Of a stretch of 64,000 nt of DNA, positions 51 to 46,722 are shown in pieces (within the stretch, counting starts at the first letter, position 1; each line of letters begins with the position of its first letter). Source of the DNA: Candidatus Yanofskybacteria bacterium RIFCSPHIGHO2_01_FULL_43_32 (lineage in GTDB: Bacteria > Patescibacteriota > Minisyncoccia > 2-02-FULL-40-12 > GWA2-44-9). The stretch spans positions 37,751-101,750 of the forward strand of contig MGJF01000002.1 in assembly GCA_001794125.1 (NCBI GenBank), read 5' to 3'. Position numbers and translations under genes: made by a program. The notes beneath the pieces were generated by a model. The model had not been told where the DNA came from. It saw only the letters and a list, made by a program, of their open reading frames with translations, and did not search any database.

Positions 51-305
51 ATGTCAACCGAAAAAGAAGGTGTTATCGATGGTGATTATACTAAAGACCT
101 TGTGTTAAATAGGCTCCTGGAAACAAAAGATATTGAAAAAATAGCCACCGTTAAATTCAAAACATATGGAACAAGCAGGATCTGGACACATGAAGACGAA
201 GTGCCAACTTACAGAGATTTAATTCTCCATGAAATTACAAAAAAAGACTTATGGCGTGGTTATGCTTGGCTTTTGCATACTGATAATTTAAAAAAATTAA
301 ATTAA
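51..305 (+). CDS. hypothetical small protein (84 aa)
   Basis: Intact ORF immediately upstream of and apparently co-transcribed with the methyltransferase gene; no recognisable motif. Confidence 0.3.
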   Translation: MSTEKEGVIDGDYTKDLVLNRLLETKDIEKIATVKFKTYGTSRIWTHEDEVPTYRDLILHEITKKDLWRGYAWLLHTDNLKKLN

Positions 306-306
306 C

Positions 307-1263
307 ATGGAAAAAATCCGCAACTTTAAGCTAAAAGATTTTGCCGGTTTCTTTGGAACCACAGTTCAAGATATTCCCGAGGTTTGCCGGAAAATAATAA
401 CAAAAAGTGATTTTCGTTATCGCTTGGTTTCTGCTACGAAACTGACTCAATTAATTCGGGAGATAAATAGAAAAATTGATGGGGATGATTTGTTTGTGGC
501 CGGTAAAAAAGCTAAATCGATTTGGCAAAAGAGGTGGTCTGCTCAGCTTAAAGATTTTGTTGCCAACGACTTCCAAGCTACAGTTTTGGTGCCAAAATAT
601 GTCAAAAAACCGATTAATAATACATATTGCCGGTTTGATCATGGTTTTATTGCTCCATTGGATGAAAATTTTGAATTGAACTGGAAACTGGTTTTGAAAT
701 ACTGGTTATTCGGTAAGTACCTTAAAAATGTGGACCACATTTATGAATTCGGCTGTGGAACGGGGATAAATATGGCGATACTTGCCGATCTGTTTCCGCA
801 AAAAAAATTGCATTGTTCAGACTGGGTAGATTCATCCAAAAAAATAGCTGAGCATATGTCTAAGCAGTATCACTGGAACGTGTCGGGCCATGTTTTTGAT
901 ATGTTTCATCCCGATCCAAAATTTAAAATAGAAAAAAATAGCGCTTTTTTGACTTTTGGCGCTTTGGAGCAAATGGGAACGGGATATGAATCTTTTATAA
1001 ATTTTGCCATAAAAAATAAAATAGATTTATTTGTAAACGTGGAACCAGTAGAAGAATTGCTCGATAAAACCGATTCCTTAGATGCTTTGTCCATCAAGTT
1101 TATTTATAAAAGGAATTATTTAAGAAATTACTTAACTTATCTGCGCCGTTTGCAAACAGAAGGCAAAATAAAAATTCAAAAAGTACAAAGGACTTGTCCT
1201 GGGAGCTTCTATCAGGATCTTTCATATATTGTTTGGCGGCCAATTAAACCTAAGATTAATTGA
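307..1263 (+). CDS. class I SAM-dependent methyltransferase
   Basis: Motif I EFGCGTGINMAILAD (GxGxG Rossmann SAM-binding); start 1 nt after previous stop. Confidence 0.55.
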   Translation: MEKIRNFKLKDFAGFFGTTVQDIPEVCRKIITKSDFRYRLVSATKLTQLIREINRKIDGDDLFVAGKKAKSIWQKRWSAQLKDFVANDFQATVLVPKYVKKPINNTYCRFDHGFIAPLDENFELNWKLVLKYWLFGKYLKNVDHIYEFGCGTGINMAILADLFPQKKLHCSDWVDSSKKIAEHMSKQYHWNVSGHVFDMFHPDPKFKIEKNSAFLTFGALEQMGTGYESFINFAIKNKIDLFVNVEPVEELLDKTDSLDALSIKFIYKRNYLRNYLTYLRRLQTEGKIKIQKVQRTCPGSFYQDLSYIVWRPIKPKIN

Positions 1264-1266
1264 ACC

Positions 1267-2262
1267 ATGATTATAACGAGAACCCCATTTAGAATTTCAT
1301 TTTTCGGAGGTGGTACAGATTACCCTGTTTGGTATGAGAAAAACGGCGGCTCCGTCTTGTCTATGGCCATTGATAAATATAGTTATATCAATTTGCGTTC
1401 TATGCCGCCGTTTTTTAAACATAAATATAAAATCATTTATTCTAAACACGAAGAAGTTAAACATATCAATAAAATAAAACACCCTTCGGCAAGGGAAACG
1501 CTTCGCTATTTAAATATTGATGGAGGTGTGGTAATTCACCACGACGGTGATTTACCGGCCATGTCCGGCCTGGGCTCTAGTTCATCATTTACTGTCGGAC
1601 TCGTCCATGCTTTATCCGGGTTGAAAGGAGAAATAAAAACAAAACGCCAATTGGCGCTGGATGCTATTCATATAGAACAAAATTTAATCAAAGAAAATGT
1701 TGGTTCTCAAGATCAAACTATTGCCGCCTTCGGCGGTCTTAATCGTATAGATTTTGGCGGACCTCAAAAAATTCAAGTTTACCCGATAACTATAAGCAAA
1801 GAAAGAACGGAATTGTTTAAAAGTCATCTCATGCTATTTTTTACTGATTTTACCCGGCAAGCTTCTAAAATAGCTAAACATTGGATAAAAAATACCAAGA
1901 ATAACGGTAATGAACTTAAATCGATAACCAATATGGTTGACGAGGGAGTGGCTATTTTATGCAGTAATCGGAACATAATTGATTTCGGTAAATTGCTTCA
2001 CGAACATTGGTTAATAAAACGTGGGCTGGCTCAAAAAATTTCCAATCCTAAAATAGACGAAATATACAAAATCGGACGGGAAGCGGGAGCTATTGGCGGG
2101 AAGCTACTCGGCGCGGGTGGCGGAGGTTTTATGTTGTTTTTTGCGAAACCGGAGGATCATCCCAAAATAAAAGAAAAATTAAAAAAGTTTTTATATGTGC
2201 CGTTTAACATTGATATGCTTGGAAGCCAGATAATTTATCATAATCTTAATAATAGTTTTTAA
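1267..2262 (+). CDS. GHMP-family sugar kinase, D-glycero-alpha-D-manno-heptose-7-phosphate kinase (HddA/WcbL)-like
   Basis: N-terminus MIITRTPFRISFFGGGTDYPVWYEKNGGSVLSMAIDKY closely matches HddA; GHMP motif PAMSGLGSSSSFTVG; C-terminal GAGGGGF. Confidence 0.7.
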   Translation: MIITRTPFRISFFGGGTDYPVWYEKNGGSVLSMAIDKYSYINLRSMPPFFKHKYKIIYSKHEEVKHINKIKHPSARETLRYLNIDGGVVIHHDGDLPAMSGLGSSSSFTVGLVHALSGLKGEIKTKRQLALDAIHIEQNLIKENVGSQDQTIAAFGGLNRIDFGGPQKIQVYPITISKERTELFKSHLMLFFTDFTRQASKIAKHWIKNTKNNGNELKSITNMVDEGVAILCSNRNIIDFGKLLHEHWLIKRGLAQKISNPKIDEIYKIGREAGAIGGKLLGAGGGGFMLFFAKPEDHPKIKEKLKKFLYVPFNIDMLGSQIIYHNLNNSF

Positions 2263-2265
2263 AAA

Positions 2266-2300
2266 TAACCTACCGTCAGCTTACAGCCGGCGGTAGGTTT
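2266..2300. terminator. hairpin between convergent genes (acctaccg...cggtaggt) with flanking A/T runs
   Basis: 8-bp inverted repeat 2268-2275/2291-2298 between + gene stop 2262 and - gene stop 2299. Confidence 0.3.
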
Positions 2301-2814
2301 AAACACCCCTGTCTCTGTTTGAAAGTATCGGATTAACAACCGGCCACGGAATATTAAATCTTGGGTCGTTCCATCGGACGCTCCACTGGTTTTCTGCTCC
2401 TTTGTAATATTCTGATTGGTTGTAATGAAAAATAGCACCCTTATTACTTAAAACGAGGTGGCCATTCAGGTGTTTCGGCGGAATAAGAATTTGTAAACCA
2501 TTGTCGTCGGTTAAGAAAAACATTTCCCATTTGCCAAAATGACAGGAAAATTGGTCATAATTTACTACCGCCAAACAAAAAGCGCCGAAAGGACAACAAA
2601 TCATTTTGTAAGTTTTGTCGTCTCCATGGAGACCCCTTAGGGTATTTTTCCTAGAAAAGGAAAAATCCTGTTCCACAAAATCAATCGTGATTCCTTTCTT
2701 AAAGTAATCCTCTCTTTGATAAATTGTCGCATAAATCCCGCGGTGATCCCTGAACGGAAATCCTCTGTGTATTTTCAATACTCCAGGTAAAGAAGTTGAA
2801 GAGACCTTGATCAC
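2299..2814 (-). CDS. RmlC-like cupin sugar-nucleotide 3,5-epimerase (dTDP-4-dehydrorhamnose 3,5-epimerase family)
   Basis: RGLHGD motif, IPPKHLNGH and WNDPRFNIPWP align with RmlC RGLH / IPxGFAHGF / WNDPxxxIxWP. Confidence 0.7.
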   Translation of the reverse strand: MIKVSSTSLPGVLKIHRGFPFRDHRGIYATIYQREDYFKKGITIDFVEQDFSFSRKNTLRGLHGDDKTYKMICCPFGAFCLAVVNYDQFSCHFGKWEMFFLTDDNGLQILIPPKHLNGHLVLSNKGAIFHYNQSEYYKGAENQWSVRWNDPRFNIPWPVVNPILSNRDRGV

Positions 2815-2897: not shown

Positions 2898-2926
2898 TTG
2901 ACAACGGGTTCTTTGTTATATATATT
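2898..2926 (+). promoter_or_regulatory. sigma70-like promoter TTGACA-17nt-TATATT upstream of first split transketolase
   Basis: TTGACA 2898-2903, TATATT 2921-2926. It lies inside the ORF-track start at 2926, so the real start is likely ATG 2980. Confidence 0.45.
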
Positions 2927-2979
2927 TGCGCCAATTGAACATTAAAAACAAGGATGGGGGAGTGATAAATAACAACCAC

Positions 2980-3780
2980 ATGGCTAAGCAGGCGAGAATG
3001 GCTCGCCACATGATACTGGATATGATATTTGAAGCAAGATCATCCCATCTTGGCTGCGCTCTTTCCATCGTCGACATACTAACAGCATTATATTTTGGGG
3101 ATATTCTAAAAATTGACCCCAAAAATCCTGATTTGGAAGACAGGGACAAGTTTATTTTGAGCAAAGGCCATGCTTGTGTGGCGTTGTATGCTACTTTGGC
3201 TTTGAAGGGTTATTTTTCATTAGAAAAATTGAAAGAGTATGGAACTGACGGTACTCTGATCGGAGATCACAATACCCGTGGCGCTTTGCCTGGAATCGAA
3301 ACAACCAACGGTTCTCTCGGGCATGGCTTGCCGATTGGTGTCGGGATGGCATTAGCCGCAAAGAAGGCAAAAAGATCGTCAAGAGTCTTTGTTTTGGTCG
3401 GAGATGGTGAGCTTCAGGAAGGTTCAAACTGGGAAGCTTTGATGTTTGCCGGATTCCATAAATTGGACAACTTAACTCTCATTATTGACAATAACAACCT
3501 TGAGACACTCGGACCGACCGACAAAATTCTTAGTTTGGCCGGATTACATGATAAATTAGAAAGTTTCGGATGGGATACGGAAAGCATTTGCGGACATCGC
3601 TTCGCAGAAATTATCGGCCAGCTAAATATGTCTCATGAAAAACCGTTTGCACTAAATTGCCACACAACAAAGGGCAAGGGTGTTCCGTTCATGGAGAATG
3701 ATCATATCTGGCACGGCAAATGTCCGACCAAAGAAGAATATGAGAGAGCCAAAAAAGAATTGAACGGAGGATTGCAATGA
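2980..3780 (+). CDS. transketolase, N-terminal (ThDP-binding) subunit, copy 1
   Basis: SKGHACVALYATLAL, GSLGHGLPIGVGMALA, GDGELQEGSNWEA motifs. Start moved to ATG 2980 (MAKQARMARHMILD) downstream of the promoter. Confidence 0.8.
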   Translation: MAKQARMARHMILDMIFEARSSHLGCALSIVDILTALYFGDILKIDPKNPDLEDRDKFILSKGHACVALYATLALKGYFSLEKLKEYGTDGTLIGDHNTRGALPGIETTNGSLGHGLPIGVGMALAAKKAKRSSRVFVLVGDGELQEGSNWEALMFAGFHKLDNLTLIIDNNNLETLGPTDKILSLAGLHDKLESFGWDTESICGHRFAEIIGQLNMSHEKPFALNCHTTKGKGVPFMENDHIWHGKCPTKEEYERAKKELNGGLQ

Positions 3781-4703
3781 GATTTGAGGTCGTCAAAACG
3801 ATTTACAAGGCTGCGTGTTCCGATTCCAAAGTAGTTTTTCTAACAGGGGATTTGGGCCATGCTCATTTGGATGATTTCAGAAAAAATTTACCCGGCCAGT
3901 ATTATAATATCGGCATTGCTGAGCAAAACATGATAGGTATTGCTGCCGGACTTGCTCTTTCCGGCCACAGAGTGTTTGTTTATTCAATTGCTCCCTTTGT
4001 GACGCTGCGGTGTCTTGAACAAATTAAGGTAGATGTTTGTTATCAAAATGTTGGGGTCGTGGTTGTCGGAGTGGCCGCTGGCTATGCCTATTCAACATGC
4101 GGATGCACTCATCATGCGATTGAAGATGTTGCGGCCATGAAAGCATTGCCGAATATGCAGATATATTCGCCATCCAATTCATTAGAAGCGCGGTTGGTTA
4201 CAGAATATCTAATAAAAACATCGCATCCCGCCTATCTGCGCATCGGTAAAGGCGGGGAATTGAGCGCCGAAAAAGAATATGGCCTTGAAATCGGCAAGGG
4301 GTTAGTCGTTAAGCCTGGCAACGATATAACCATATTCGCCACCGGCACGATTGTAAATGAGGCGGTTGCCGCAAGCAATATTTTGGAGCAACACGGAGTC
4401 AGCGCAGAGGTGATAAATATACACACAATAAAACCCTTGGACAAAGAGCTTGTTGAAAAATCAGCTCAAACCAGAGATGCGGTATTTGTCCTAGAAGAAC
4501 ACAACATCATTGGCGGACTGGGTGAAAGCATCGCAAGAATAATCTGCGAATGTAATGGGAACAAGAAACCAATTTTCAAATGTCTTGGCGTTCCCGACGA
4601 ATACAACCATCGTGCAGGTAGCCACCAGTATATGTTGGGCTGTTATGGATTGAACGCAGAAGCAATTGCCAGACAAATTGTAGAATTATATAAAAAGGCC
4701 TAG
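3777..4703 (+). CDS. transketolase, C-terminal (pyrimidine-binding) subunit, copy 1
   Basis: GIAEQNMIGIAAGLALSGHRVFVYSIAPFVTLRCLEQIK; ATGA overlap with upstream stop. Confidence 0.8.
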   Translation: MRFEVVKTIYKAACSDSKVVFLTGDLGHAHLDDFRKNLPGQYYNIGIAEQNMIGIAAGLALSGHRVFVYSIAPFVTLRCLEQIKVDVCYQNVGVVVVGVAAGYAYSTCGCTHHAIEDVAAMKALPNMQIYSPSNSLEARLVTEYLIKTSHPAYLRIGKGGELSAEKEYGLEIGKGLVVKPGNDITIFATGTIVNEAVAASNILEQHGVSAEVINIHTIKPLDKELVEKSAQTRDAVFVLEEHNIIGGLGESIARIICECNGNKKPIFKCLGVPDEYNHRAGSHQYMLGCYGLNAEAIARQIVELYKKA

Positions 4704-4775: not shown

Positions 4776-5576
4776 ATGGATCTCGGTTTAAAAGGAAGAA
4801 CAGCACTCATTACCGGTTCAAGCCAGGGTATCGGCAAGGCATGTGCTATCGCTTTAGCCAGAGAAGGGTGCAATATAATTTTGTGCGCGCGAAATGCTTC
4901 TAAGTTAAGAACAGTTTGTGTGGAAATTGAAGAGATGTATCCCGATATTAATGTAAACTGGGCAACCGTTGACGCAACTTCTCGAGAAAGTGTTAAGAGT
5001 TTTTTAAGTCAGATTCATTCTCTTGATATTTTGGTAAATAATGTCGGCGGCGGAACAGAAAAACCATTAAAACTTTGGGGATTAACCGAGGAACAATGGA
5101 TTGACACGTACAAGTTAAATGCTTTAAGCATGGTGTGGTTTACCGAATTCGCGGTTCCTCTTCTTGAAAAATCTTTACAGCCGAGAGTTATAAATATTGG
5201 AAGCAAAACATCTCATGAGCCGGGATGGAACAATCCCCACTATGGCGCTGCCAAATCAGCCATGGATTATCTGAATAAGCGCATATCCAATGAGTTGGCG
5301 CCTAAAGGAATTTGCGTCAACGTTATCGGTCCCCATGCGCTTATTTGCGACACTTGGGAGAGAGATGTTCGCGACCGCGCGCAAACTCTCGGAATAGCTA
5401 TTCAGAAAGCACGGGCCATTGTGACCAAAGAGGTTGTAAGCAAAATACCAATGGGACGACAAGGCACAGATGAAGATGCGGCTAATTTGGTTGTTTTCCT
5501 GGCTTCTGCTCAAGCTAATTTTATCACCGGTACTTACATTCCCTTAGACGGTGGAGCTACGAGGTCGATTCTTTGA
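4776..5576 (+). CDS. SDR-family oxidoreductase
   Basis: TGSSQGIGKACAIALAREG (TGxxxGIG) Rossmann motif, YxxxK region, AGGAA RBS. Confidence 0.8.
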   Translation: MDLGLKGRTALITGSSQGIGKACAIALAREGCNIILCARNASKLRTVCVEIEEMYPDINVNWATVDATSRESVKSFLSQIHSLDILVNNVGGGTEKPLKLWGLTEEQWIDTYKLNALSMVWFTEFAVPLLEKSLQPRVINIGSKTSHEPGWNNPHYGAAKSAMDYLNKRISNELAPKGICVNVIGPHALICDTWERDVRDRAQTLGIAIQKARAIVTKEVVSKIPMGRQGTDEDAANLVVFLASAQANFITGTYIPLDGGATRSIL

Positions 5577-5645: not shown

Positions 5646-5671
5646 CAAAAAAAAACACGCTGAATGCGTGT
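5646..5671 (-). terminator. rho-independent terminator for minus-strand SDR gene
   Basis: acacgc-tgaat-gcgtgt hairpin with a 9-nt A-run on + (T-run on -). Confidence 0.55.
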
Positions 5672-6453
5672 TATAAAATCTTGCTTTGACCTCCGTCAAT
5701 CACTATTGAGGCGCCGTTTAGCAGTTGGGCTTTGTCTGAACAAATAAATGTTACGACACTTGCCACTTCTTCGGGTAAACCCAGTCGCCCTAATGGGAAA
5801 TTTTCCAGAACAAACTTATTGAATTCTTCCGGATTTTCCCTTTGTTTTCTTTCCAGTCCCGTGTCCGGTATCATTATCTGTCCCGGAGCAACGCTATTGA
5901 ACGTAATTCCGTCTCTTACCAAGTCGTGTTTGATGGCCAGGCTTTTCATAAAACTTATCTGCGCGCTCTTTGCCATGCTGTACCATGGTCTTCCTCCGGC
6001 TTCCCGCCCGCAAATAGAAGATATGGTGACTACCCTGCCCCATTTTTCTTTTCTCATAAGAGGCAGACACCGCATTGTAAATCTGATAGCTGCTGTAACG
6101 TTTTTGTCATATACGTCTTGCCACACCTTTTCGGAAGTTTGCTCAACATCTTCACTGCCCCAGCTTCCGCCTCCGCCTACGTTATTTATCAAAATATGCA
6201 ATTTTCCCCACGTGCCGGTTATAATACTTACCACTCGCTCAATATCTTGCGGGTTTGTTGCGTCAGCGCTTATTCCTATGCCAACAACACCTTTGTTTTC
6301 TATCTCTTTGACCACTTCATCAACCCTTTGTTTGTTTCTCGCACAGATAGCCACGTGACAGCCTTCAGCAGCTAAGGCAAGAGCTATTGCCCGGCCAATC
6401 CCGTGACTGCCACCGGTAACCAATGCGTACTTTCCACTTAGACCCAAGTTCAA
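5671..6453 (-). CDS. SDR-family oxidoreductase (3-oxoacyl-ACP-reductase-like)
   Basis: VTGGSHGIGRAIALALAAEG, NNVGGGG; convergent with the preceding SDR. Confidence 0.8.
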   Translation of the reverse strand: MNLGLSGKYALVTGGSHGIGRAIALALAAEGCHVAICARNKQRVDEVVKEIENKGVVGIGISADATNPQDIERVVSIITGTWGKLHILINNVGGGGSWGSEDVEQTSEKVWQDVYDKNVTAAIRFTMRCLPLMRKEKWGRVVTISSICGREAGGRPWYSMAKSAQISFMKSLAIKHDLVRDGITFNSVAPGQIMIPDTGLERKQRENPEEFNKFVLENFPLGRLGLPEEVASVVTFICSDKAQLLNGASIVIDGGQSKIL

Positions 6454-6557
6454 ATTAGCTCTCCTTCAGTTATTATTTTCAATAAACTGGCCATAGAATA
6501 GAATACTTTTGGTGATTTGTCAAAAAAATGTAAAAAACTCGGCATCTGGTACTGAGC

Positions 6558-6585
6558 TTGATTTACTTCAAAATCATAGTATAAT
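6558..6585 (+). promoter_or_regulatory. sigma70-like promoter TTGATT-16nt-TATAAT (extended TAGTATAAT)
   Basis: Lies inside the ORF-track start 6509, so the real start is ATG 6620. Confidence 0.45.
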
Positions 6586-6619
6586 TTCGACACGCGATCT
6601 TTTAAAACTAGGCCACAAA

Positions 6620-7450
6620 ATGAATATAGACAAATTAAGCAAGAAGGCGAAATGGATCAGAAGCAGAGCCCTGGAAATGTGCATCAATGCCGGCAAGGGC
6701 CATCTTGGCGGCGCATTTTCCTGTACCGAAATTCTTGTCGCTCTTTACTATGGCGGTATTTTGAACATATCGCCCCTCTCAAAAAACAACTCCGACAGAG
6801 ACAGGCTGATATTCAGCAAGGGCCATGCCATGCTGGCTCTCTATGTAATTCTTGGAGATTTAGGATTTTTTGACGCCAAAGAATTGGAAGCCTACGGTAA
6901 AAATGGAACAATGCTCGGCGATCACCCTGATCACATGATACCCGGAATAGAAATCGCTTCCGGATCATTAGGCCATGGCTTAAGTGTTGCCTGCGGTCTT
7001 GCACTGTCTGCAAAAATGAACAACAAAAATTTTCTGACAGTGGCAATCTTGGGTGATGCTGAATGCAACGAGGGCTCCGTTTGGGAGGCAGCAACATTCG
7101 GTTGCAACTCCAAATTAAACAATTTGGTAGCAGTCGTAGACAACAACAGAATAGGCGCCACAGATTTTACGGAAAATTTTTCCGGTTCAATGCCGATGGA
7201 AAATAAATGGCAAGCATTCGGATGGCAGACGGTAAAAATTGACGGCCATAGTTTCAGAGATATCTTGTCTGGTTTTGAAAGAGCCAAGCAGTCAACGGAC
7301 AGACCCACGGCTATTATAGCCGAAACTATAAAAGGTAAAGGTATTTCATTCATGGAAAATAAATCTAATTGGCATCACGGCGCGCCCAAAGGCGAATTGG
7401 CCATTAAGGCCCGGCAAGAACTTGCAGACGGAGATAAAAATGGAAACTAA
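6620..7450 (+). CDS. transketolase, N-terminal subunit, copy 2 (paralog of 2980-3780)
   Basis: FSKGHAMLALYVILG, GSLGHGLSVACGLALSA, GDAECNEGSVWEA. Confidence 0.8.
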   Translation: MNIDKLSKKAKWIRSRALEMCINAGKGHLGGAFSCTEILVALYYGGILNISPLSKNNSDRDRLIFSKGHAMLALYVILGDLGFFDAKELEAYGKNGTMLGDHPDHMIPGIEIASGSLGHGLSVACGLALSAKMNNKNFLTVAILGDAECNEGSVWEAATFGCNSKLNNLVAVVDNNRIGATDFTENFSGSMPMENKWQAFGWQTVKIDGHSFRDILSGFERAKQSTDRPTAIIAETIKGKGISFMENKSNWHHGAPKGELAIKARQELADGDKNGN

Positions 7451-8387
7451 AAATTATACCGATTTGCGGGACGCTTTTTTTGAGGAGTTATATCTTCTGG
7501 CTTCGGCTGACAGCAATGTGGTTTTAATATACGGCGACCAGGGAGCTCAAACTTTCAAAAAATTCCAGCAAACCATACCTGGTCAAATAATTAACGGCGG
7601 AATCGCGGAACAAAATTTGATAGGTGTTGCGGCTGGCTTGGCCTTAGGCGGCAAAAAAGTTTTTGTCCACGCAATTGCCCCGTTCATTACCTTGAGATGT
7701 TATGAACAAATAAAAGTTGATCTGGGTTTAATGGGTCTTCCTGTTACCTTAGTGGGGATTGGAGCGGGGTACTCTTACGGCGACGCCGGACCCACACACC
7801 ATGCCGTTCAAGACCTGTCAATTTTGCGGGCAATTTCTGGAATGACAATCTTTAACGCATCCGATACTGTTAGCCTATCCCGTTTTGTTAAAATTGCTTA
7901 CGGGAACATTAAAGGACCTGTTTATATCCGATTTGATAAAGATAGTCCCTCTCAAATTTATACGGAAAAAGAAAGTTTTTGCGCAGGTTTGGCGAAAATA
8001 AGAAGCGGAAAAGATATAATTATTATTTCAACCGGTTTAATGGTTCACAGGGCCTTAGCAGTTGCGGATAAATTAAACTCATTGGGAATTGATGCCGGAG
8101 TAATTGATGTATATCGCATCAAACCGCTTAATTCTGTTTTGCTGGCAGAAGTCCTGGCCGGCTGTCAAAGGATTGTCGCCCTTGAAGAACACAGCCCTAT
8201 CGGCGGCCTTGGTTCGCTGATAAGCGAATTCATTTGCGATTCCGGATTGTCTACCGTTTCTCTGAAAAGAATCGCTCTTGAAGATAGCGATTGCTTTACT
8301 TACGGTACGCGTGAATATGTTCATACCCGAATTGGCTTAGACAAGGACACGCTTGTTGCCAGAATACGTGAGTGGCTCGTTTTATAA
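7440..8387 (+). CDS. transketolase, C-terminal subunit, copy 2
   Basis: GIAEQNLIGVAAGLALGGKKVFVHAIAPFITLRCYEQIK; start at ATG 7440 with GGAGA RBS, 11-nt overlap with upstream. Confidence 0.8.
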   Translation: METKNYTDLRDAFFEELYLLASADSNVVLIYGDQGAQTFKKFQQTIPGQIINGGIAEQNLIGVAAGLALGGKKVFVHAIAPFITLRCYEQIKVDLGLMGLPVTLVGIGAGYSYGDAGPTHHAVQDLSILRAISGMTIFNASDTVSLSRFVKIAYGNIKGPVYIRFDKDSPSQIYTEKESFCAGLAKIRSGKDIIIISTGLMVHRALAVADKLNSLGIDAGVIDVYRIKPLNSVLLAEVLAGCQRIVALEEHSPIGGLGSLISEFICDSGLSTVSLKRIALEDSDCFTYGTREYVHTRIGLDKDTLVARIREWLVL

Positions 8388-8439: not shown

Positions 8440-9243
8440 ATGGAAACAAGTTTTCGTTCTTTTATTAACAAGGTAGCTAAAGTGGCAGAGAGAAAAATCA
8501 ATGTTGAAACCAAAGAAACAAACAAAGAAAAACAAAATGTTCAAAAATTAGTTACCCTTCTTCGAGAATGTCCAATCCCCAACGAGCAGGTATTGTCTAA
8601 TTTGGGTCTTTTTCTGACCTCTAAAGAATTGGCAAGAATTTTGTTTGTGGATTTTATTTACCGCCAGGCCATAGAAGTTCAGGGTATTATTGTTGAATTT
8701 GGCACTCGTTGGGGTAATAACTTGGCGATTTTTGAAGCCCTAAGAGGAATTTATGAGCCGTTCAACAAGTTAAAACAAATAATTGGCTTTGACACTTTCG
8801 AAGGATTTCCTCATGTGTCGTCAGAGGATGGAAATTCAAACCCCCTTGTCTCTGTGGGAAATTTATCATGCACCGTAAATTACCCTGATTACTTAGACCG
8901 GATAATGAAGTGCCACGAGGAAAGCAACCCGCTTAGTTATATAAAAAAATATAAAATCAGGGTTGGCGATGTCACTAAAGAAATAGACCGATATCTAAAA
9001 GATAATCCGGAAACAATTATTGCTTTGGCATTTTTTGACCTTGATTTGTATAGACCAACCAAGAAGTGTCTCGAAGCCATAAGATCACATCTTGTAAGAG
9101 GCAGTATCTTGGCTTTTGATGAATTAAATGACCACAACTGGCCAGGAGAAACCATTGCTCTTAAGGAAGTGTTCGGTCTAAATAATATTAGACTCAAGAG
9201 GCATCCGCAAGCATCCAGAGTCTCTTACTTTGCAGTAGAGTGA
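8440..9243 (+). CDS. TylF/MycF-family (macrocin O-methyltransferase-like) sugar O-methyltransferase
   Basis: GIIVEFGTRWG ... FDTFEGFP parallels TylF GDIVECGVxRGGS ... DSFEGLP. Confidence 0.55.
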   Translation: METSFRSFINKVAKVAERKINVETKETNKEKQNVQKLVTLLRECPIPNEQVLSNLGLFLTSKELARILFVDFIYRQAIEVQGIIVEFGTRWGNNLAIFEALRGIYEPFNKLKQIIGFDTFEGFPHVSSEDGNSNPLVSVGNLSCTVNYPDYLDRIMKCHEESNPLSYIKKYKIRVGDVTKEIDRYLKDNPETIIALAFFDLDLYRPTKKCLEAIRSHLVRGSILAFDELNDHNWPGETIALKEVFGLNNIRLKRHPQASRVSYFAVE

Positions 9244-13591: not shown

Positions 13592-13592
13592 A

Positions 13593-13616: not shown

Positions 13617-13706
13617 TTTCCAATATCGACGCAATCAGCTGATGGACAAATCTAAACTTTTATGTTATCAAATTGAGAACACCGCACCTTGTCAATAAGG
13701 AACAAA

Positions 13707-38134: not shown

Positions 38135-39269
38135 ACGGGAATATTTGTTAATAGGTATTGTTGCGGCGGTGATGCTGGCTTACTTTATCATAGCTACGCC
38201 AGTTATGAACGACGATGGATTTCACTATGAAGGATTTGCTGAATCACTGGCTCACGGCAAATTGGACTTCAAATCGTTTTACGGGTTTCAAGGTCTTTCT
38301 TTTTTTGCCGTTCCTATATTTTGGCTGACCCGTTCTCACGATTCAATTATTATAATGTCGGCAATATTTTCCTTGTTTTCTGTTCTGTTGGCTTACTTTA
38401 TCGGGAAAGAATTTTACGGAAACCGCCGAGCCGGCATTTATTTTTTAATTTTATTTTTGCTGACGCCTTATCCTTATACGACCATGATGCGGGGATTTCA
38501 GGAGGCGGCGCTTCTGTTCTTTATTCTCCTGATAATATACGGGAGTTTGAATAAAAAATTGTGGACCCCTGTGACGTGGGCAGTTGGTGGAATCGTAAAG
38601 CCATTTGCCATGGTCCTCTTTCCTTTGTTTATCAAAGATTTTTGGAATAATCCGTTTAATAAAACTCATGGCAGGAAAATCATTTGGCCGATAGTTGCCA
38701 TAGTTATCGGCGGTGCTTATTTGGGTGCAAGTTATTATCAAACCGGACACTTGATTAATAACGCAGCAATAAATTCATATCAGGGGAACTTTGATACGGG
38801 TAATCCACCGCCTTTGGCAGAAAGCTTTACCGTCGGAATTAAGGGATATTTAAGAGTTGCCGCCAACCTTCTCCTGTCTTTTAGAAAAATAATGATTTCT
38901 CCATTGGTAATTGTATTGGGCTTCCTTTCCCTGCTGTTTAACAAGGACTTAAAATTAAGAAAAGAAATAATTTTGGCCATTATTCTTAATTTTATATTGG
39001 TTGGCAGTCTAACATTTTCTTTTTCTAAATATCTTCTACCGATGACGGCGTTATTTGCCTTGGCTTCGGTTAGCTATCTTCTAAAACATAAATGGCTGAT
39101 GATTTTTGTGTTTGTTGATTCGTTGTTTGTGTTTTTGCCGATTTGGAATTATTTTGGTCATAACTATTGGTCGAATATTTATTTATATTTAACCCCTTTT
39201 TGGTTAGCGGCGGCATTGTTTATATATGAGCGATTACTCGCAAAGCATAGTTTTAATACCAACTCTTAA
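38127..39269 (+). CDS. polytopic membrane protein, putative Wzy polymerase or GT-C-fold glycosyltransferase
   Basis: 380 aa, multiple TM helices, position between flippase and polyprenyl-phosphate GT2. Confidence 0.4.
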   Translation: MAKREYLLIGIVAAVMLAYFIIATPVMNDDGFHYEGFAESLAHGKLDFKSFYGFQGLSFFAVPIFWLTRSHDSIIIMSAIFSLFSVLLAYFIGKEFYGNRRAGIYFLILFLLTPYPYTTMMRGFQEAALLFFILLIIYGSLNKKLWTPVTWAVGGIVKPFAMVLFPLFIKDFWNNPFNKTHGRKIIWPIVAIVIGGAYLGASYYQTGHLINNAAINSYQGNFDTGNPPPLAESFTVGIKGYLRVAANLLLSFRKIMISPLVIVLGFLSLLFNKDLKLRKEIILAIILNFILVGSLTFSFSKYLLPMTALFALASVSYLLKHKWLMIFVFVDSLFVFLPIWNYFGHNYWSNIYLYLTPFWLAAALFIYERLLAKHSFNTNS

Positions 39270-39936
39270 CGAGAGGGAGAATTTAAAAGATCTGATCCCT
39301 TCGATTTTTGGTTTAATGCCGGAGATTTCTGTTTTAGTCGTGGACGACAATTCTTCCGACGGTACGCGGGAATTGGTCGGGTTTATGAAGACAGGTTTTA
39401 AAAACCTTTTTCTTTTGGAAAGAAAAAATAACTTTGGTTATGGGCGTTCAAGCATCGACGGATTCAAGTGGATATTTGAAAGACCATATGACAATGTTGT
39501 GACAATGGACGCCGATTTTTCACATAATTTTAATGAAGTACCCGCCTTACTGGAAAAACTTAAAAACTCTGATGTTGCGATGGGCTCTCGGTATATAAGG
39601 GGAGGCGGAGTTAAAAATTGGAGTTTTTTCAGGAGAGTTTTAAGCAGGCTTGCTAATCTTTATGTAAAAATAATTTTAGGTCTTCCTGCTGCGGATGCTA
39701 CGTCTGGATTTAATGCTTACCGGGTGACTTCATTGAAAAAAATAAATTTAGACAAGATAGATTCAAACGGATACGCCTTCCTTGTGGAATTAAAATATCG
39801 GCTTTTCAGGGCTGGCTCTAAATTTATCGAACACCCAATTCTGTTCAGTGAGCGCAGGGAGGGGCAATCAAAAATGTCCGGCAAAATAATATGGGAATCA
39901 ATCAAGCTTCCTTGGAAACTGAAATTATTCAATTAG
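39226..39936 (+). CDS. polyprenyl-phosphate glycosyltransferase (GT2, Dpm1/ArnC/GtrB-like)
   Basis: [16 protein letters not shown]...[22 protein letters not shown]. Confidence 0.75.
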
Positions 39937-40467
39937 TATTGCCGCGGCGACCACGGTTGTCCAGAGGCCGTCTTTGTTGCCGATGGCTGATTGAGTGTAA
40001 TTTGTCGTCTTGAATATTTGTTCGGAGGCTTTGAATATTTGTTCTCTTTCGTCCCATGCGGTATCGGGGTCAAACTCTATGCCCAATGTGGTTGCCAGCA
40101 TTTGCGCGGCCAGGTCTTCCGCGTAATCGCCGGCTTTTTCATCTGTTTCCCCGAAAGGGTGGTGTTCCGACAGATAACCGTATTGATTCGGATCTTGCGG
40201 AATGGCAACGCCTATCGAAGCCGAAATCAACCTGTTCGGCTCATTGGTGGCATTGCGGGCGATGACGGCGTGAACCACCGAACCCGGCGGCAGTAATTTA
40301 ATTCCTTCTTCGCGGGTTATTTTTTTAACATTCGGCGGGTAGATGCTGGATACCGCAACTAAATTGTACGGCGCGACTCCGGCGGCGCGCAACGCCAGCT
40401 CGAAAGAAGTTAAATATTCTTTGTGCGTTCCCGAACCTTTGGTGAAAAATATTTTTGTCGGCAGCAT
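39925..40467 (-). CDS. pdaD: pyruvoyl-dependent arginine decarboxylase
   Basis: [39 protein letters not shown] and [12 protein letters not shown] align with M. jannaschii PdaD [38 protein letters not shown] / ISAAISVAIPKD; Ser-Ser self-cleavage site present. Confidence 0.75.
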
Positions 40468-40573: not shown

Positions 40574-41911
40574 TTATTTTCCCGACCTCTGAAACATAAT
40601 CCTGATAGTTTTGAGAGCAATTCCAATATCCAAGATCAAAGAGCGGTTTTTGATATAGTACAGATCGTATTTTAATTTTTCGGCCGCATCGGCCACGGAA
40701 GAACCGTAGCGGAAATTTATCTGGGCCCAGCCGGACAGCCCCGGTTTTATCAGATATCTTTCTTCATAGAACGGAACTGTTTTTAATTGTTCATTAAACT
40801 CCGGCCGCTCTGCCCGCGGTCCGATAAATGCCATCTGTCCTTTGAGGATGTTCCATAATTGGGGCAACTCATCTATTCTTGTTTTACGCATAAATCCGCC
40901 CGCTTTGGTTATTCTGGGGTCGTTGTTTGAGGCCCAAATCGCGCCGGTGTTTTTCTCGGCGTCTTTATTCATCGTTCTGAATTTAATAATTTCAAAAGTT
41001 TTACCAAGCTGGCCGACCCTTTTCTGTTTGTAAAAAACCGGTCCTTCCGAAGTCATTTTGATCAAAAAAACGATAAAAGGATAAAACAGCAAGCTGAACA
41101 GGCCCAGAACAACGGCGAAAACCAAGTCGCTGACGCGTTTGGCCATTTCGTATGCTCTTTTGTTTCCTTCGTTCAGATTTTCCAGAAACCAAATCTGGTT
41201 GATTGCCCCTAAAGGAACCATACCCGTCAGGCGTTCGTAAAAAGAAGCAAGGTTTACGAAACCAACCTTTTGCTCAAGAGACTTGTAAAAGATGTCTATT
41301 ATTTCAGGAACCTGATATGCTTCCGGGCTTAAAACGATTGTGTCTATTTTTTCTTCTTTAATTACCATGTCAATGTGCTTTAGTTTGTCCGAAGCTATGT
41401 CTATGACGGACTTAATCTCATAACCTAACTGGGGATTTTCTTTTATGAACAGATCAAGTTCAAGGGACTGATTATTCGTCCCCACGATGAGTATTGATTT
41501 CTTGAAACCTTTTTGCAGAATATTATTGGAAACAGAACGGCTAAGAAATTCCAGTCCCGTAAAAACAGCCACAAAAATCAACAGATTTGTTTTCGGCGTA
41601 ATTCCATACAGGGGAATTACATAGAAAAACAACACGGAAATTGCGGCGGCTATGATAATTGCCCGGAAAAGCGCCGAATAAAAATGGATATTGTTTCTTA
41701 GCAGCTTTGGTTCGTAGAGATTAGCAATATAAAAAACTAAAAGCCAGGAAATGAAAATCAAAGAAAACGGGTATAAGTGTACCGTATATTTCTCATAGAG
41801 ATTGTCGGGATACCGGATTAGAAGAGTCAATACCAGGGAAAAATAAAGAATCGTAATATCCGAGAAGAAAATTAAGAATTTTTTCACCCTCTGATTATAC
41901 CAAATTTGCAA
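40574..41911 (-). CDS. initiating polyprenyl-phosphate hexose-1-phosphate transferase (WbaP/EpsL 'bacterial sugar transferase' family)
   Basis: N-terminal TM helices; C-terminal RVSDLVFAVVLGLFSLLFYPFIVFLIKMTSEGPVFYKQKRVGQLGKTFEIIKFRTM ... PGLSGWAQI. Confidence 0.8.
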   Translation of the reverse strand: MQIWYNQRVKKFLIFFSDITILYFSLVLTLLIRYPDNLYEKYTVHLYPFSLIFISWLLVFYIANLYEPKLLRNNIHFYSALFRAIIIAAAISVLFFYVIPLYGITPKTNLLIFVAVFTGLEFLSRSVSNNILQKGFKKSILIVGTNNQSLELDLFIKENPQLGYEIKSVIDIASDKLKHIDMVIKEEKIDTIVLSPEAYQVPEIIDIFYKSLEQKVGFVNLASFYERLTGMVPLGAINQIWFLENLNEGNKRAYEMAKRVSDLVFAVVLGLFSLLFYPFIVFLIKMTSEGPVFYKQKRVGQLGKTFEIIKFRTMNKDAEKNTGAIWASNNDPRITKAGGFMRKTRIDELPQLWNILKGQMAFIGPRAERPEFNEQLKTVPFYEERYLIKPGLSGWAQINFRYGSSVADAAEKLKYDLYYIKNRSLILDIGIALKTIRIMFQRSGK

Positions 41912-44671: not shown

Positions 44672-44715
44672 GATTAATTTTTTGGGATCTGGTCAAGACT
44701 TGCAAACTTATTTTC

Positions 44716-45396
44716 TTGTGCCATTATGGCCAGATGAAAAGGCCCTCTGTTTACCTAATAGAATCAAGCAGTCGTCAAGATTTGGCTCAAATGTTTATGC
44801 GCTTCCAGGAGTATTATGAGTCTCCTGAATTCAAGGGAAAAACCTTTTCTATCGATGAATTTGTCCATTGGTACACTCAGAAGCATAAAGCCTTCACATA
44901 CACTCGCGACTGGTACGGCTTTAATATCCCAGCTTCTGTCCTCCAGCCATTCCGAGACGGCCAATTTGACCCGCTTACGACCAAAGAACGCAATTTGCTT
45001 AAATTGTGTGAAAAGGCAGACACAAATTCATATATTATAGGTGTAACTCCAAGTGCCGAGTATTTTAAGGAAACCGTTAAGCATGAATTTGTTCATGGGG
45101 CGTTTCATGTCGATCGTTTTTATAGAGATGAGGTTAAGGCGTGCCTTTTGAATAATAACGTAAAAGAGATTGTCACAGGATTAAAGAAGATGGGTTATCA
45201 CGAAGATGTTTTTGCGGACGAGGCAAACGCTTATGTGCTTATAGAACCCGAAACTATTCAGGAATTTGCATCAATTTCCAATACAAAGCGTCTTAGAGAA
45301 GATTTGAGAACAATTTTTCAGAAGCATTTCGGCTTTTCAATTCTCGACATAAAAGTCCAGGAACTGCTTGGGCGAGTGGAGCATGTTTTAATATAA
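44716..45396 (+). CDS. hypothetical protein with HEFVH motif
   Basis: KHEFVHGAFH; no other recognised domain. Confidence 0.3.
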   Translation: MCHYGQMKRPSVYLIESSSRQDLAQMFMRFQEYYESPEFKGKTFSIDEFVHWYTQKHKAFTYTRDWYGFNIPASVLQPFRDGQFDPLTTKERNLLKLCEKADTNSYIIGVTPSAEYFKETVKHEFVHGAFHVDRFYRDEVKACLLNNNVKEIVTGLKKMGYHEDVFADEANAYVLIEPETIQEFASISNTKRLREDLRTIFQKHFGFSILDIKVQELLGRVEHVLI

Positions 45397-46722
45397 ATAG
45401 CCCCAAGTTTGCAGCTTATCGCTGTCTTCTGACCACGTAGCGCCGATATCGGTTCGATAAAACATATTTACCAGCATAATATTTTCTATTCTCAAATATG
45501 CTTGTTTTCTCGCCTCTTCCATGGTTGAGCCGCTTCCTGTGACGATGAGCACATATGCGCTTTCCCCGGCGACTCTCCATACTCCGTCGGTTATTTTTAC
45601 GTCACCCAAATGGACGCCCTCGGTGTTCTGTTTTTTAAAAAGTATGGAAAGGTCTTTGTATATTTCAAATTCGGACTTATCTTCAGATGGAAATGGCGGA
45701 ACAACGCAAACCACTCCTACCTGGAACCCCTTTTTTGTTTTTAGGTCATAGTCTTCCTTGTGAGCCAATGCGTAAAAGAACTCTCCCCATTCCGAAAGCA
45801 CCCCCTCTTGCTGAATATTAATCGTCGGATATCCGAACCGGCAGGTAAATTCGAGAGGATAGATACCGCGTCCGTTGACGATACAGTTAATGTCTATATA
45901 TCCCACATACCCCGACTTATGAAGGTCTTCTTCCATCTTTCCCGTAGTTTCACCGAACAATTTATTGGATTCGCACCAGAACATTGAAGTACCCATCTCA
46001 CCGGTCATTGGTCCCAATTCGCCGGGAAATAATCTTTTGTGTTCAAAAGCTATCAGGATCGGGGTAATGAATTTATTGCCGTTGAAAAATGCCGATGCGC
46101 CGACCTCAACGCCCGAAACGAATTTTTGAAGCTGGAATTGTTTAATTTTTTTGCTGATTATTTTTTTATTTTGCTCGAGAATCTCATAAAGATCGCGTCC
46201 GTCTTCTTCTTTTCCCGCAAACAACAAACCTCTCCATTCGCCGGGAACAAATCCGGAAGGTTTGTAGACATATCTTCCGGGATTTTCTTTTATGAATTGC
46301 AGGGCTTTATCATAATCATCAAAATCCCACGATGGAAGAGTCAGCATTCCCAAACGCTTCATCTCGGCCTGGCCGAATTCGCGGTCATCTTCAAGCCTGT
46401 CGGTATATTCGCTTCCGCCTATCACGGCTTTGCCTTCTTTTCTTAGCGCATCGGCTTCTTTACCGAAACCCACATCGTCAAAAATCACAACATCCGCCCA
46501 TTTAACGTGGTCTTTCCAATCGCTGACTTTTTCAATAAAGCCATCATATTCATCCGCTACATCTTTGATGCAGCATTTTACTTTATGGCCTTCGTTTTGT
46601 ATTTTCCATGCTAAGTCGCCGGAGAGCGCTTCCCACGATACAAATAAAAATTTATATTTCTTGCCCTGAACTTGTTGAAGGGTTTTTTCTCCGTTGTGGC
46701 CGTTGCCGTTTCCGTTTGCCAT
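45388..46722 (-). CDS. phosphoribosylamine-glycine ligase (PurD)-like ATP-grasp enzyme
   Basis: LAWKIQNEGHKV; FTCRFGYPT (PurD FNCRFGDPE); C-terminal RVAGESAYVLIVTGSGSTMEEARKQAYLRIENI...RTDIG (PurD GGRVLCVTALGHTVAEAQKRAY...RKDIG). Confidence 0.6.
   Translation of the reverse strand: MANGNGNGHNGEKTLQQVQGKKYKFLFVSWEALSGDLAWKIQNEGHKVKCCIKDVADEYDGFIEKVSDWKDHVKWADVVIFDDVGFGKEADALRKEGKAVIGGSEYTDRLEDDREFGQAEMKRLGMLTLPSWDFDDYDKALQFIKENPGRYVYKPSGFVPGEWRGLLFAGKEEDGRDLYEILEQNKKIISKKIKQFQLQKFVSGVEVGASAFFNGNKFITPILIAFEHKRLFPGELGPMTGEMGTSMFWCESNKLFGETTGKMEEDLHKSGYVGYIDINCIVNGRGIYPLEFTCRFGYPTINIQQEGVLSEWGEFFYALAHKEDYDLKTKKGFQVGVVCVVPPFPSEDKSEFEIYKDLSILFKKQNTEGVHLGDVKITDGVWRVAGESAYVLIVTGSGSTMEEARKQAYLRIENIMLVNMFYRTDIGATWSEDSDKLQTWGYLY

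Follow-up and report, generated by a model that had tools for sequence, protein, structure and literature searches.

A surface-glycan super-locus of more than 50 kb, probably pairing deoxyheptose-type and nonulosonate pathways with sulfation, in a Candidatus Yanofskybacteria genome

Is the long run of sugar-related genes in a 64,000-nt stretch of Candidatus Yanofskybacteria contig MGJF01000002.1 an imported island that builds one glycan, or is it part of something larger and differently organised? This stretch, the window, supplies the coordinates used throughout; its six-frame open reading frames (ORFs) were scanned against Pfam and NCBIfam and by PDB searches. The initial annotation described positions 300-46,720 as a very large surface-glycan biosynthesis locus, and the family searches bear this out, giving a glycan-related assignment, rather than an unrelated function, to 39 of the 43 ORFs. 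Nearly all of its gene calls were right: the initiating phosphoglycosyl transferase, GT2 and GT11 glycosyltransferases, the flippase, the 3'-phosphoadenosine 5'-phosphosulfate (PAPS) and sulfotransferase genes, NeuB and NeuC, the radical S-adenosylmethionine (radical-SAM) and thiamine diphosphate (ThDP) enzymes and an HddA-like kinase. The reading favoured here, to which a probability of roughly 0.8 is given, is that the window holds the right-hand ~43 kb of a three-part surface-glycan super-locus of more than 50 kb in a Yanofskybacteria genome. Family and fold assignments, synteny and base composition are shown; which substrates are used, how the steps are ordered, what is made and as how many glycans is inferred. 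The locus is real; its kind is known, and it is unusually elaborate for that kind, unusual also in content and in host.

The nearest SecA sequences in species-representative genomes (86, 64 and 58% identity) all come from Patescibacteria-type metagenome-assembled genomes (MAGs) and exact protein matches lie in Yanofskybacteria MAGs from the Rifle aquifer, and in JGI and ENA assemblies besides; the organism is therefore a bacterium of the candidate phyla radiation (CPR). CPR genomes are usually around 1 Mb, and the bacteria themselves are generally regarded as living attached to other cells with minimal biosynthesis and are expected to lack an outer membrane. The genomic GC content, presumably about 43%, is read through the naming convention from the sister MAG RIFCSPLOWO2_12_FULL_43_11b. 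Homologous stretches from other assemblies are given locus codes. One of them, L005 (GCA_001794695.1, contig MGKK01000012.1), from a Rifle aquifer Candidatus Yanofskybacteria MAG, shares 11,263 bp with the window at full identity and provides 10 kb to its left, for an examined span of 74 kb (-10 to +64 kb). Literature searches found no paper on this MAG, on Yanofskybacteria glycans or on CPR nonulosonic acids.

The limits first set for the locus are wrong on both sides. Glycan genes extend at least 10 kb further left, where L005 encodes a GT2, two GT4s, a CmcI-type methyltransferase, an epimerase, an ABC exporter (an ABC_membrane/ABC_tran gene), a methyltransferase-like protein, a SIS_2 (GmhA-like) isomerase, a small HTH_17 protein and a 658-aa protein with ~11 hydrophobic segments. 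In the close relative L094, nine syntenic genes are 65-96% identical to the window locus and glycan genes go on for another 10 kb, with GMD, DegT, a Polysacc_synt_2 dehydratase, an RmlD-like gene, methyltransferases, a PMT_2 GT-C and a GT2. A metagenome scan for sequence still further left returned only relatives at no more than 71% identity. On the right, the last clearly glycan-related genes are those of the phosphoglycosyl transferase and a short sugar dehydrogenase, and non-glycan genes are mixed in. The four ORFs without a glycan assignment all lie here: a pyruvoyl-dependent arginine decarboxylase, two HExxH proteins (42995-45396) and a PurD-like ATP-grasp protein (45388-46722).

The first part of the locus (0.3-20.3 kb) probably makes a heavily tailored nucleoside diphosphate (NDP)-(di)deoxyheptose. 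Heptose would be supplied by the GmhA-like isomerase just left of the window and the HddA-like kinase, whose 56-57% identical orthologues in L165 (Elusimicrobia) and L166 (Tectimicrobiota) lie beside an NTP_transferase gene and, in L166, also beside SIS_2 and HAD genes. A GMD-like 4,6-dehydratase and a ColD-type 3-dehydratase could then yield a 4-keto-(3,)6-deoxy intermediate; the ColD-type protein has a His aligned to ColD His188, the site of the Schiff-base Lys in aminotransferases (2gms, 197 bits). Onto the ketone of that intermediate the E1 alpha/beta ThDP pair may place a two-carbon branch from pyruvate. An aldo-keto reductase (AKR) and short-chain dehydrogenases/reductases (SDRs) would reduce the branched sugar, the cupin epimerase and Fcl-like reductase would fix stereochemistry; methyl groups would come from a CalS11-like O-methyltransferase and from two radical-SAM enzymes of the cobalamin type. 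Further carbon-carbon chemistry could come from two divergent transketolase-like pairs.

Central to this proposal is the E1 pair, which has no E2/E3 and lies in sugar cassettes in every context examined. Its beta subunit has 63-71% identical orthologues in Elusimicrobia, Tectimicrobiota, Syntrophales and several CPR groups, those in the cross-phylum cassettes of L165 (8069-17552) and L166 (7317-20672) being 63-66% identical. Both cassettes contain GMD-like, E1 alpha/beta, SDR, RmlC-like, GHMP kinase and NTP_transferase genes; L165 also has B12-radical-SAM genes, and the further AKR, SIS isomerase and HAD phosphatase genes of L166 complete an NDP-heptose supply set there. Window proteins encoded at 307-2814 and 9363-16695 are 30-66% identical to their partners there. 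The methyltransferase-like protein that opens the window is 34% identical to the product of a 309-aa gene within the L166 cassette, and the GMD-like dehydratase has 37-45% orthologues upstream of E1 alpha, the two genes adjoining in L165 and being separated by one NUDIX gene in L166.

The E1-like AviB1/B2 and Pau11/12 represent the known route to two-carbon branches on 4-ketosugars, the AKR Pau7 reducing the branch (PMC4425429), and ThDP-dependent branching followed by reduction is a general scheme (PMC9306805). By analogy, the window pair, without E2/E3 and beside 4-keto-deoxysugar enzymes and an AKR, would resemble AviB1/AviB2 or Pau11/Pau12 with Pau7 (PMC4425429). It differs in its setting, a cell-surface glycan locus rather than an actinomycete antibiotic cluster, and in its likely acceptor, a heptose derivative. 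YerE/YerF of yersiniose (PMC9306805) would be a functional analogue of the ThDP branching. In C. jejuni HS:5/HS:11, GDP-3,6-dideoxyheptose is made by a four-enzyme pathway (PMC10440746). As in that pathway and in colitose synthesis, the window has a GMD-like enzyme, a ColD-type enzyme with His for Lys, a cupin epimerase and an Fcl-like reductase, together with the HddA-like kinase and GmhA-like isomerase; it differs in that these genes are interleaved with three ThDP pairs, an AKR, an O-methyltransferase and two radical-SAM genes. Given the E1 cassette contexts in L165/L166 and the known E1-like branching enzymes, the 'heptose/ThDP' and 'GDP-dideoxyhexose' modules, kept separate at first, are more economically read as one pathway, probably leading to a C-branched GDP-(di)deoxyheptose.

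The modular build of this part is evident from its relatives. CPR loci L167 and L168 have a common scaffold of ABC exporter, ~650-aa membrane protein, GHMP kinase, E1 alpha/beta, ColD-like, SDR and radical-SAM genes, into which varying inserts are set: a carbamoyltransferase, a second E1-like pair, DJ-1, PhyH or one transketolase-like pair. The extended SDR gene is always 3' of the ColD-like gene in CPR relatives, and the first radical-SAM protein (16801-18954) has 58% identical homologues in CPR loci L092 and L108. A small HTH_17 (excisionase/MerR-like) gene heads the exporter/~650-aa protein/GHMP kinase unit (L005 7770-8015, L168 166-408, L094 ~17174) in three of the four related CPR loci examined, and may be a locus-specific regulator. 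Terminator-like hairpins are in excess between 1 and 20 kb (38 vs 20.7 +/- 4.3 expected). Nine of these immediately follow a stop codon (5575, 5672 on the negative strand, 8386, 9253, 11363, 13590, 15654, 16698 and 18961), and the gaps of this block hold four 11/12 promoter-like sites. Between 20 and 40 kb there is no excess (19 vs 16.8 expected). The region 0.3-20.3 kb is cut into one- or two-gene units, most with a terminal hairpin, in contrast to the second part of the locus (20.4-39.9 kb), a single tight AT-rich operon in which stops and starts mostly overlap.

Within that operon the genes for a dehydratase, an aminotransferase, a formyltransferase, NeuC, NeuB and a CMP-transferase are contiguous, and homologues of the dehydratase lie within nonulosonate cassettes in L117 and L126. 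From this six-gene set and its relatives, a 5,7-diamino nonulosonate is likely to be part of the product, predicted as a CMP-activated sugar of the legionaminic/pseudaminic family that is probably N-formylated. As in known nonulosonate pathways, the NeuB- and NeuC-type proteins pass curated cut-offs and adjoin a 4,6-dehydratase, an aminotransferase and a CMP-transferase. The window set differs in three added GFO-type oxidoreductases, in a short DUF115 transferase in place of GT42/GT52/GT80, and in its acyl-transfer step: no N-acetyltransferase (LegH/PglD) was found among the window ORFs, and a Formyl_trans_N protein stands at that position. Two of the GFO-like genes are kept with the DUF115 gene in CPR relatives (44-57% identical in L111, L115, L117, L120, L125 and L126). 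Legionaminic acid specifically, as at first proposed, is plausible and is not established, the dehydratase being nearest to inverting PseB and the aminotransferase nearest to perosamine synthase.

The gene first called GT42-like proved to be of the DUF115/MptE (Maf-type) kind, PF01973 being its sole Pfam match; there was no GT42 family match, and a PDB sequence search gave no match. An alignment-based AlphaFold2 (AF2) model of the protein (pLDDT 84.7) has as top Foldseek matches Maf 5mu5, MptE, ST8SiaIII (GT29) and the P. multocida sialyltransferase, with probability ~1 and TM scores of 0.35-0.45. On this model a role as nonulosonate transferase is plausible. The GT2, GT11 and DUF115 transferases would build a repeat unit on polyprenyl phosphate, which Wzx may flip and the adjacent polytopic protein perhaps polymerises.

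Sulfation would begin with a 905-aa protein of the operon, a fusion whose N-terminal pyruvate kinase (PK) barrel, without the PK C domain, precedes the parts of a PAPS synthase; the fused enzyme is predicted to make PAPS, with which the glycan would be sulfated. Catalytic motifs of all three enzymes are kept, with HxxH, GRDHTG and the P-loop intact in the PUA, ATP sulfurylase and APS kinase part. The obvious reading of this domain order is a PAPS synthase driven by phosphoenolpyruvate (PEP) that would regenerate its ATP. PK and ATP sulfurylase domains occur in all 120 homologues listed, and APS kinase also in 81 of them; the named ones among those listed come from Paceibacterota, Sungbacteria, Doudnabacteria, Parcubacteria, Minisyncoccia, Woesearchaeota and Nanoarchaeota. 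With the PK domain alone as query, N-terminal fusions (600-1,150 aa) make up about half of the best 150 cluster representatives and barrel-only proteins most of the remainder; kinases of the ordinary 470-aa form turn up only far down the ranking. Related fusions (L169 8001-10742, L170 8001-10841) lie among glycosyltransferases and epimerases, on a Woesearchaeota-type contig with Wzx and UGDH and on a 1.03-Mb CPR contig with a sulfotransferase, NeuB, a CysQ-like phosphatase and a phosphoglycosyl transferase. Compared with bifunctional ATP sulfurylase/APS kinase PAPS synthases, the window protein has the same intact PUA, ATP sulfurylase and APS kinase motifs, with a sulfotransferase gene next; it differs in the N-terminal PK barrel, an architecture that recurs in CPR and DPANN glycan loci. 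No paper on PK-ATP sulfurylase fusions or on transketolases in O-antigen clusters was found in the literature.

The third part (39.9-42.9 kb) would contribute the initiating phosphoglycosyl transferase and the short sugar dehydrogenase, set among conserved non-glycan genes. The transferase is the only initiating one in the 74 kb examined and has a 48% identical copy in L012, where the order is Wzx, phosphoglycosyl transferase, 558-aa protein, S30AE and SecA. In the dehydrogenase-like protein the GxGxxG Rossmann motif and GGYCFPKD, with the catalytic Cys, are kept; the C-terminal nucleotide-sugar-binding domain alone is missing, and the idea of a pseudogene was therefore rejected. In L127 a 49% identical homologue is encoded within a few kb of a phosphoglycosyl transferase gene. 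The arginine decarboxylase gene is directly beside secA in L014 and L025, and the PurD-like gene is also near secA in L025; no homologue of the window glycan genes was found at these two loci. These two genes are thus conserved neighbours rather than glycan genes, and the PurD-like gene was rejected as a member of the glycan locus on this ground. The placement of the decarboxylase gene in the relatives suggests that the region was rearranged locally or that the transferase block was inserted here. Of the two HExxH proteins, which match no family, one is N-terminally anchored (558 aa, HEFQH) and has a 40% identical copy beside the phosphoglycosyl transferase in L012 (L012 7830-9581), and the other is cytosolic (226 aa, HEFVH). 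Between the start of the decarboxylase gene and the end of the transferase gene lies an AT-rich palindrome (40469-40525) with 27-nt arms, 85% complementary, and a 3-nt loop.

Several observations weigh against the super-locus reading or parts of it. Unlike the GDP-3,6-dideoxyheptose pathway, the window has no nearby equivalents of HddC (NTP_transferase) and GmhB (HAD phosphatase), none being found in the 74 kb examined. Nearly all tailoring enzymes fall under the NCBIfam equivalog cut-offs, those of the dideoxyheptose set all doing so, and their substrates are therefore unassigned. No glycosyltransferase is encoded within 2.9-20.3 kb. In the nonulosonate set a PseB-nearest dehydratase is combined with an epimerase and a synthase of the Neu/Leg type, and the aminotransferase and formyltransferase could alternatively make N-formylperosamine. 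The Wzy call is by position and topology alone (the single-sequence AF2 model, pLDDT 47.5, is unusable), and no chain-length regulator (Wzz/PCP) family match was found among ORFs of the window or L005 1-10000. Of the complete Wzx/Wzy set claimed at first, the initiating transferase and Wzx stand. As in Wzx/Wzy O-antigen and capsule clusters, there are an initiating transferase, several GT2/GT11 genes, a MOP flippase, a polytopic protein at the polymerase position and nucleotide-sugar genes of the locus's own, and the locus is in part AT-rich with content that varies between relatives. It differs in its CPR host, its size of more than 50 kb, its additional ABC exporter and the lack of a Wzy family match, chain-length regulator or mobility signature. 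That the block at 2.9-20.3 kb yields a small molecule other than a glycan, such as a secondary metabolite or a cofactor-like substance, would agree with the missing glycosyltransferase and equivalog matches and with the frequency of ThDP carboligases, AKRs and B12-radical-SAM methylases in natural-product clusters (PMC4425429). This is very improbable, however: the ColD-type, GMD-like, Fcl-like, RmlC-like, CalS11-like and HddA-like proteins are all NDP-sugar enzymes, glycosyltransferases and exporters lie on both sides of the block, and the other-phylum cassettes include NTP_transferase genes (L165, L166), a Wzx-family gene and glycosyltransferases (L166) and a faint Glyphos_transf match (L165). 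A single glycan, as first annotated, is not shown; the upstream ABC exporter, the further glycosyltransferases there and the ~650-aa membrane protein suggest more than one product. At a little under even odds, two or more independent glycoconjugate pathways lie side by side, for example a heptose-based polymer or protein glycan that is ABC-exported or transferred by a GT-C (upstream region plus 0.3-20.3 kb) and a Wzx-dependent, sulfated, nonulosonate-capped repeat unit (20.4-42.9 kb). The two export systems, the blocks' unlike GC and transcription architecture, their different combination in CPR relatives and the PMT_2 GT-C gene upstream in L094 all speak for such a division. The single initiating transferase speaks against it, as does the GT11 gene: members of this family use GDP-activated deoxysugars, and its presence in an AT-rich operon without a GDP-sugar pathway of its own suggests use of the first block's product.

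The role of the transketolase-like pairs and the origin of the locus also admit other explanations. The pairs might supply a ketose phosphate (sedoheptulose 7-phosphate or an octulose or nonulose phosphate) to an isomerase/kinase route without branching of an NDP-sugar; GDP-octose formation for lincosamides is a parallel. Their nearest solved relative is a genuine split transketolase (6yaj), SIS isomerase and GHMP kinase genes are adjacent, and the ThDP-binding and N-half His motifs are kept. Precursor supply is nevertheless doubtful. Unlike canonical transketolase, neither pair retains the substrate-binding residues: at the positions of E. coli transketolase His461 and Asp469, which bind the sugar phosphate, pair 1 has Ala and Cys and pair 2 has Gly and Ala, where 6yaj has His and Asp. 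Moreover, the heptose cassettes of L165/L166 do without transketolase-like genes, and in relatives the pairs are optional inserts. As for origin, the whole 46-kb block was first described as AT-rich and horizontally assembled. GC does vary across the window (see table), yet low GC is not block-wide: it holds for 1-3 kb and 20.3-39.9 kb (GC ~0.37, about 6 points under the genome) and fails for 3-20.3 kb, which matches the genome. Gene-level GC differs from the flank for 20.3-39.9 kb (p = 1.5e-4, Mann-Whitney), and not for 39.9-46.7 kb (p = 0.18) or the 17-kb ThDP/deoxysugar block at 2.9-20.3 kb (p = 0.23). The flank mean is itself pushed up by three surface-protein genes (53.8-59.7 kb), and without them is 0.433, equal to that block. 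Recent acquisition of the entire block as an island would account for the AT-rich parts, for the more distant L014 and L025, in which the 10 kb upstream hold no homologue of the window glycan genes, and for L012, which carries other genes between Wzx and the phosphoglycosyl transferase. It is unlikely, however, and has no direct support. No tRNA was found in tRNA scans, no Rfam element at gathering threshold in the window and L005 (cobalamin, TPP and SAM riboswitches included), and no integrase or transposase family match among the ORFs scanned (window, L005 1-10000); att-like repeats around the AT-rich block were short chance-level matches only. The HTH_17-to-radical-SAM scaffold is common to other Yanofskybacteria and CPR contigs, the closest homologues with a source name of genes in the AT-rich block are from CPR genomes, and low GC with tight operons is also typical of old, diversifying glycan loci. 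The locus is a lineage-typical modular glycan super-locus and not demonstrably an imported island.

A bolder synthesis joins these parts. With host-supplied cofactors, the locus might use its three ThDP pairs and the two radical-SAM enzymes of cobalamin type to make an undescribed class of higher-carbon, multiply C-branched and C-methylated deoxyheptose, displayed alongside a nonulosonate that is sulfated and N-formylated; terminator-bounded cassettes would diversify the CPR coat, and the PK-fused PAPS synthase would be a CPR/DPANN-specific, PEP-driven means of sulfation. This combination is speculative and, taken whole, rather improbable. If true, the bacterium would depend on its own host for the ThDP and cobalamin cofactors of its surface coat; the group to which it belongs is generally held unable to make either. 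A glycan locus of more than 50 kb would take up ~5% of a roughly 1-Mb genome (the typical CPR size). At such a size the surface coat would be a major cell investment, and thus likely to help determine how the cell attaches to its host, how susceptible it is to phage, or both. Two enzyme sets are of note beyond this genome, the E1-type-ThDP heptose cassette conserved from CPR to Elusimicrobia and Tectimicrobiota, and the PK-fused PAPS synthase recurring in CPR and DPANN glycan loci.

Table 1. Predicted features of the locus in window coordinates, and base composition by segment (bits are scores against the models named).
Feature	Coordinates	Strand	Evidence
Methyltransferase-like protein, 318 aa	307..1263	+	Pfam methyltransferase matches sub-threshold; UniRef name 'Methyltransferase domain-containing'
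GHMP sugar-1-kinase, HddA-like	1267..2262	+	GHMP_kinases_N/C; HddA model 132 bits vs cut-off 600
RmlC-type cupin C3/C5 epimerase	2299..2814	-	dTDP_sugar_isom 120 bits; 53-56% identical to L165/L166 orthologues
Split transketolase-like ThDP pair 1	2926..4703 (N half 2926-3780, C half 3777-4703)	+	Transketolase_N, Transket_pyr, Transketolase_C; nearest structure 6yaj, 193 bits
Classical SDR oxidoreductase	4776..5576	+	adh_short 134 bits; no NCBIfam cut-off reached
Classical SDR oxidoreductase	5671..6453	-	adh_short_C2 172 bits; 40% identical paralogue of 4776-5576
Split transketolase-like ThDP pair 2	6509..8387 (N half 6509-7450, C half 7422-8387)	+	Pfam; halves 38-41% identical to pair 1
NDP-sugar O-methyltransferase, CalS11-like	8440..9243	+	PDB 4gf5/3tos (TDP-rhamnose 3'-O-methyltransferase CalS11), E = 2.8e-67, 230 bits
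E1 alpha + E1 beta, 2-oxoacid-decarboxylating ThDP pair	9363..11364 (alpha 9363-10325, beta 10255-11364)	+	E1_dh 157 bits; Transket_pyr, Transketolase_C
ColD/E1-type pyridoxamine phosphate-dependent NDP-4-keto-6-deoxysugar 3-dehydratase (DegT protein)	11463..12659	+	Top PDB = ColD 2gms, 3b8x, 3gr9, 2r0t, 193-197 bits
Extended SDR (epimerase/reductase)	12656..13591	+	Epimerase 122 bits; 68-77% identical at same position in L167/L168
GMD-like NDP-sugar 4,6-dehydratase	13689..14696	+	GDP_Man_Dehyd 215 bits; TIGR01472 131.6 vs cut-off 415
Fcl/ColC-like C4 reductase (epimerase)	14657..15652	+	Epimerase 137 bits; GDP-L-fucose synthase model 132.9 vs cut-off 500
Aldo-keto reductase, candidate branch ketoreductase	15745..16695	+	Aldo_ket_red 194 bits; AKR also in cassette L166; precedent Pau7 (PMC4425429)
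Cobalamin-type radical-SAM (KedN5-like C-methyltransferase family)	16801..18954	+	Radical_SAM 40.1 bits; B12-binding 25.4 bits, under cut-off; KedN5 231.7 vs 700
Second radical-SAM, sub-threshold B12 domain	18994..20292	-	Radical_SAM 67 bits; BchE, PhpK, HpnJ models all under cut-offs
Glycosyltransferase (TIGR04440 domain), first gene of AT-rich operon	20429..21517	+	TIGR04440 158.9 > cut-off 70
Pyruvate kinase barrel + PUA + ATP sulfurylase + APS kinase fusion (PAPS synthase), 905 aa	21595..24312	+	Pfam; ATP sulfurylase and APS kinase models pass cut-offs
PAPS-dependent sulfotransferase	24309..25247	+	Sulfotransfer_1 40 bits vs cut-off 22; start overlaps PAPS synthase stop
CMP-nonulosonate synthetase-like cytidylyltransferase	25234..25971	+	CTP_transf_3 86 bits; PseF 166.9 vs cut-off 205.7
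GFO/IDH/MocA oxidoreductase	25958..26980	+	Pfam
Nonulosonate synthase (NeuB/LegI type)	26977..28032	+	NeuB 325 bits; TIGR03569 441.9 > 399.65; PseI 317 < cut-off 340
Hydrolysing NDP-HexNAc 2-epimerase (NeuC/LegG type)	28029..29177	+	TIGR03568 395.9 > 235.9
Sugar N-formyltransferase-like protein	29219..30088	+	Formyl_trans_N 54.9 bits; PDB matches Fmt, GDP-perosamine N-formyltransferase, ArnA
NDP-4-keto-sugar aminotransferase	30054..31190	+	DegT 407 bits; PseC, LegC under cut-offs (LegC 279.7 vs 420); nearest PDB perosamine synthetase 277 bits
NDP-HexNAc 4,6-dehydratase (PseB/CapD/FnlA class)	31162..32184	+	Polysacc_synt_2 305 bits; PseB 2gn4 234 bits vs PglF 167 bits; LegB 72 vs cut-off 475
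Two GFO-like oxidoreductases	32191-33162, 33140-34084	+	GFO_IDH_MocA 30-37 bits
GT11 (alpha-1,2-fucosyltransferase family)	34090..34938	+	Glyco_transf_11 114 bits
DUF115/MptE-like putative CMP-nonulosonate transferase	34965..35822	+	PF01973 24.9 bits, under cut-off; domain carried by most homologues
GT2 glycosyltransferase	35822..36796	+	Glycos_transf_2 128 bits
Wzx-type (MOP) flippase	36800..38134	+	Polysacc_synt_3 52.6 bits (cut-off 23), Polysacc_synt 39 bits; ~12 hydrophobic segments; 46% identical in L012
Polytopic membrane protein, candidate Wzy-like polymerase	38127..39269	+	~9-11 hydrophobic segments; no Pfam/NCBIfam match
GT2, weakly AglJ/PpgS/ArnC-like, possible polyprenyl-phosphate glycosyltransferase	39226..39936	+	Glycos_transf_2 77 bits; NCBIfam matches all under cut-offs
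Pyruvoyl-dependent arginine decarboxylase	39925..40467		GC 0.50; set between glycan genes
Initiating polyprenyl-phosphate phosphoglycosyl transferase	40574..41911	-	Bac_transf 212.8 bits; TIGR03025 347.8 > cut-off 295.55
Short NDP-sugar dehydrogenase-like protein, 320 aa	41966..42928	+	UDPG_MGDP_dh_N + central domain; no C-terminal domain
Base composition	1-3 kb		GC 0.369
Base composition	3-20.3 kb		GC 0.427
Base composition	20.3-39.9 kb		GC 0.372
Base composition	39.9-46.7 kb		GC 0.409
Base composition, flank	46.7-53.6 kb		GC 0.445
Base composition, flank	53.6-59.8 kb		GC 0.493
Base composition, flank	59.8-64 kb		GC 0.443

Additional observations concern the flank to the right of the locus. 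A 339-aa protein encoded at 50986-52005, whose start overlaps the end of secA by 11 nt, combines a cytidylyltransferase-like domain with a weak DisA_N (diadenylate cyclase-like) region. The three surface-protein genes (53829-59733) have a GC of 0.50-0.54, vs a genome value of ~0.43, and their products are secreted or anchored. One, of 797 aa, is rich in Ser/Gly/Thr and has a PEPTPEP-type tail at its C terminus; another, of 612 aa, combines five GYAWGENxGWISF repeats with a Pro/Ser/Thr linker and CarboxypepD_reg domains; the remaining one, of 416 aa, gives a weak beta-helix match. All three are possible candidates for glycoprotein acceptors.

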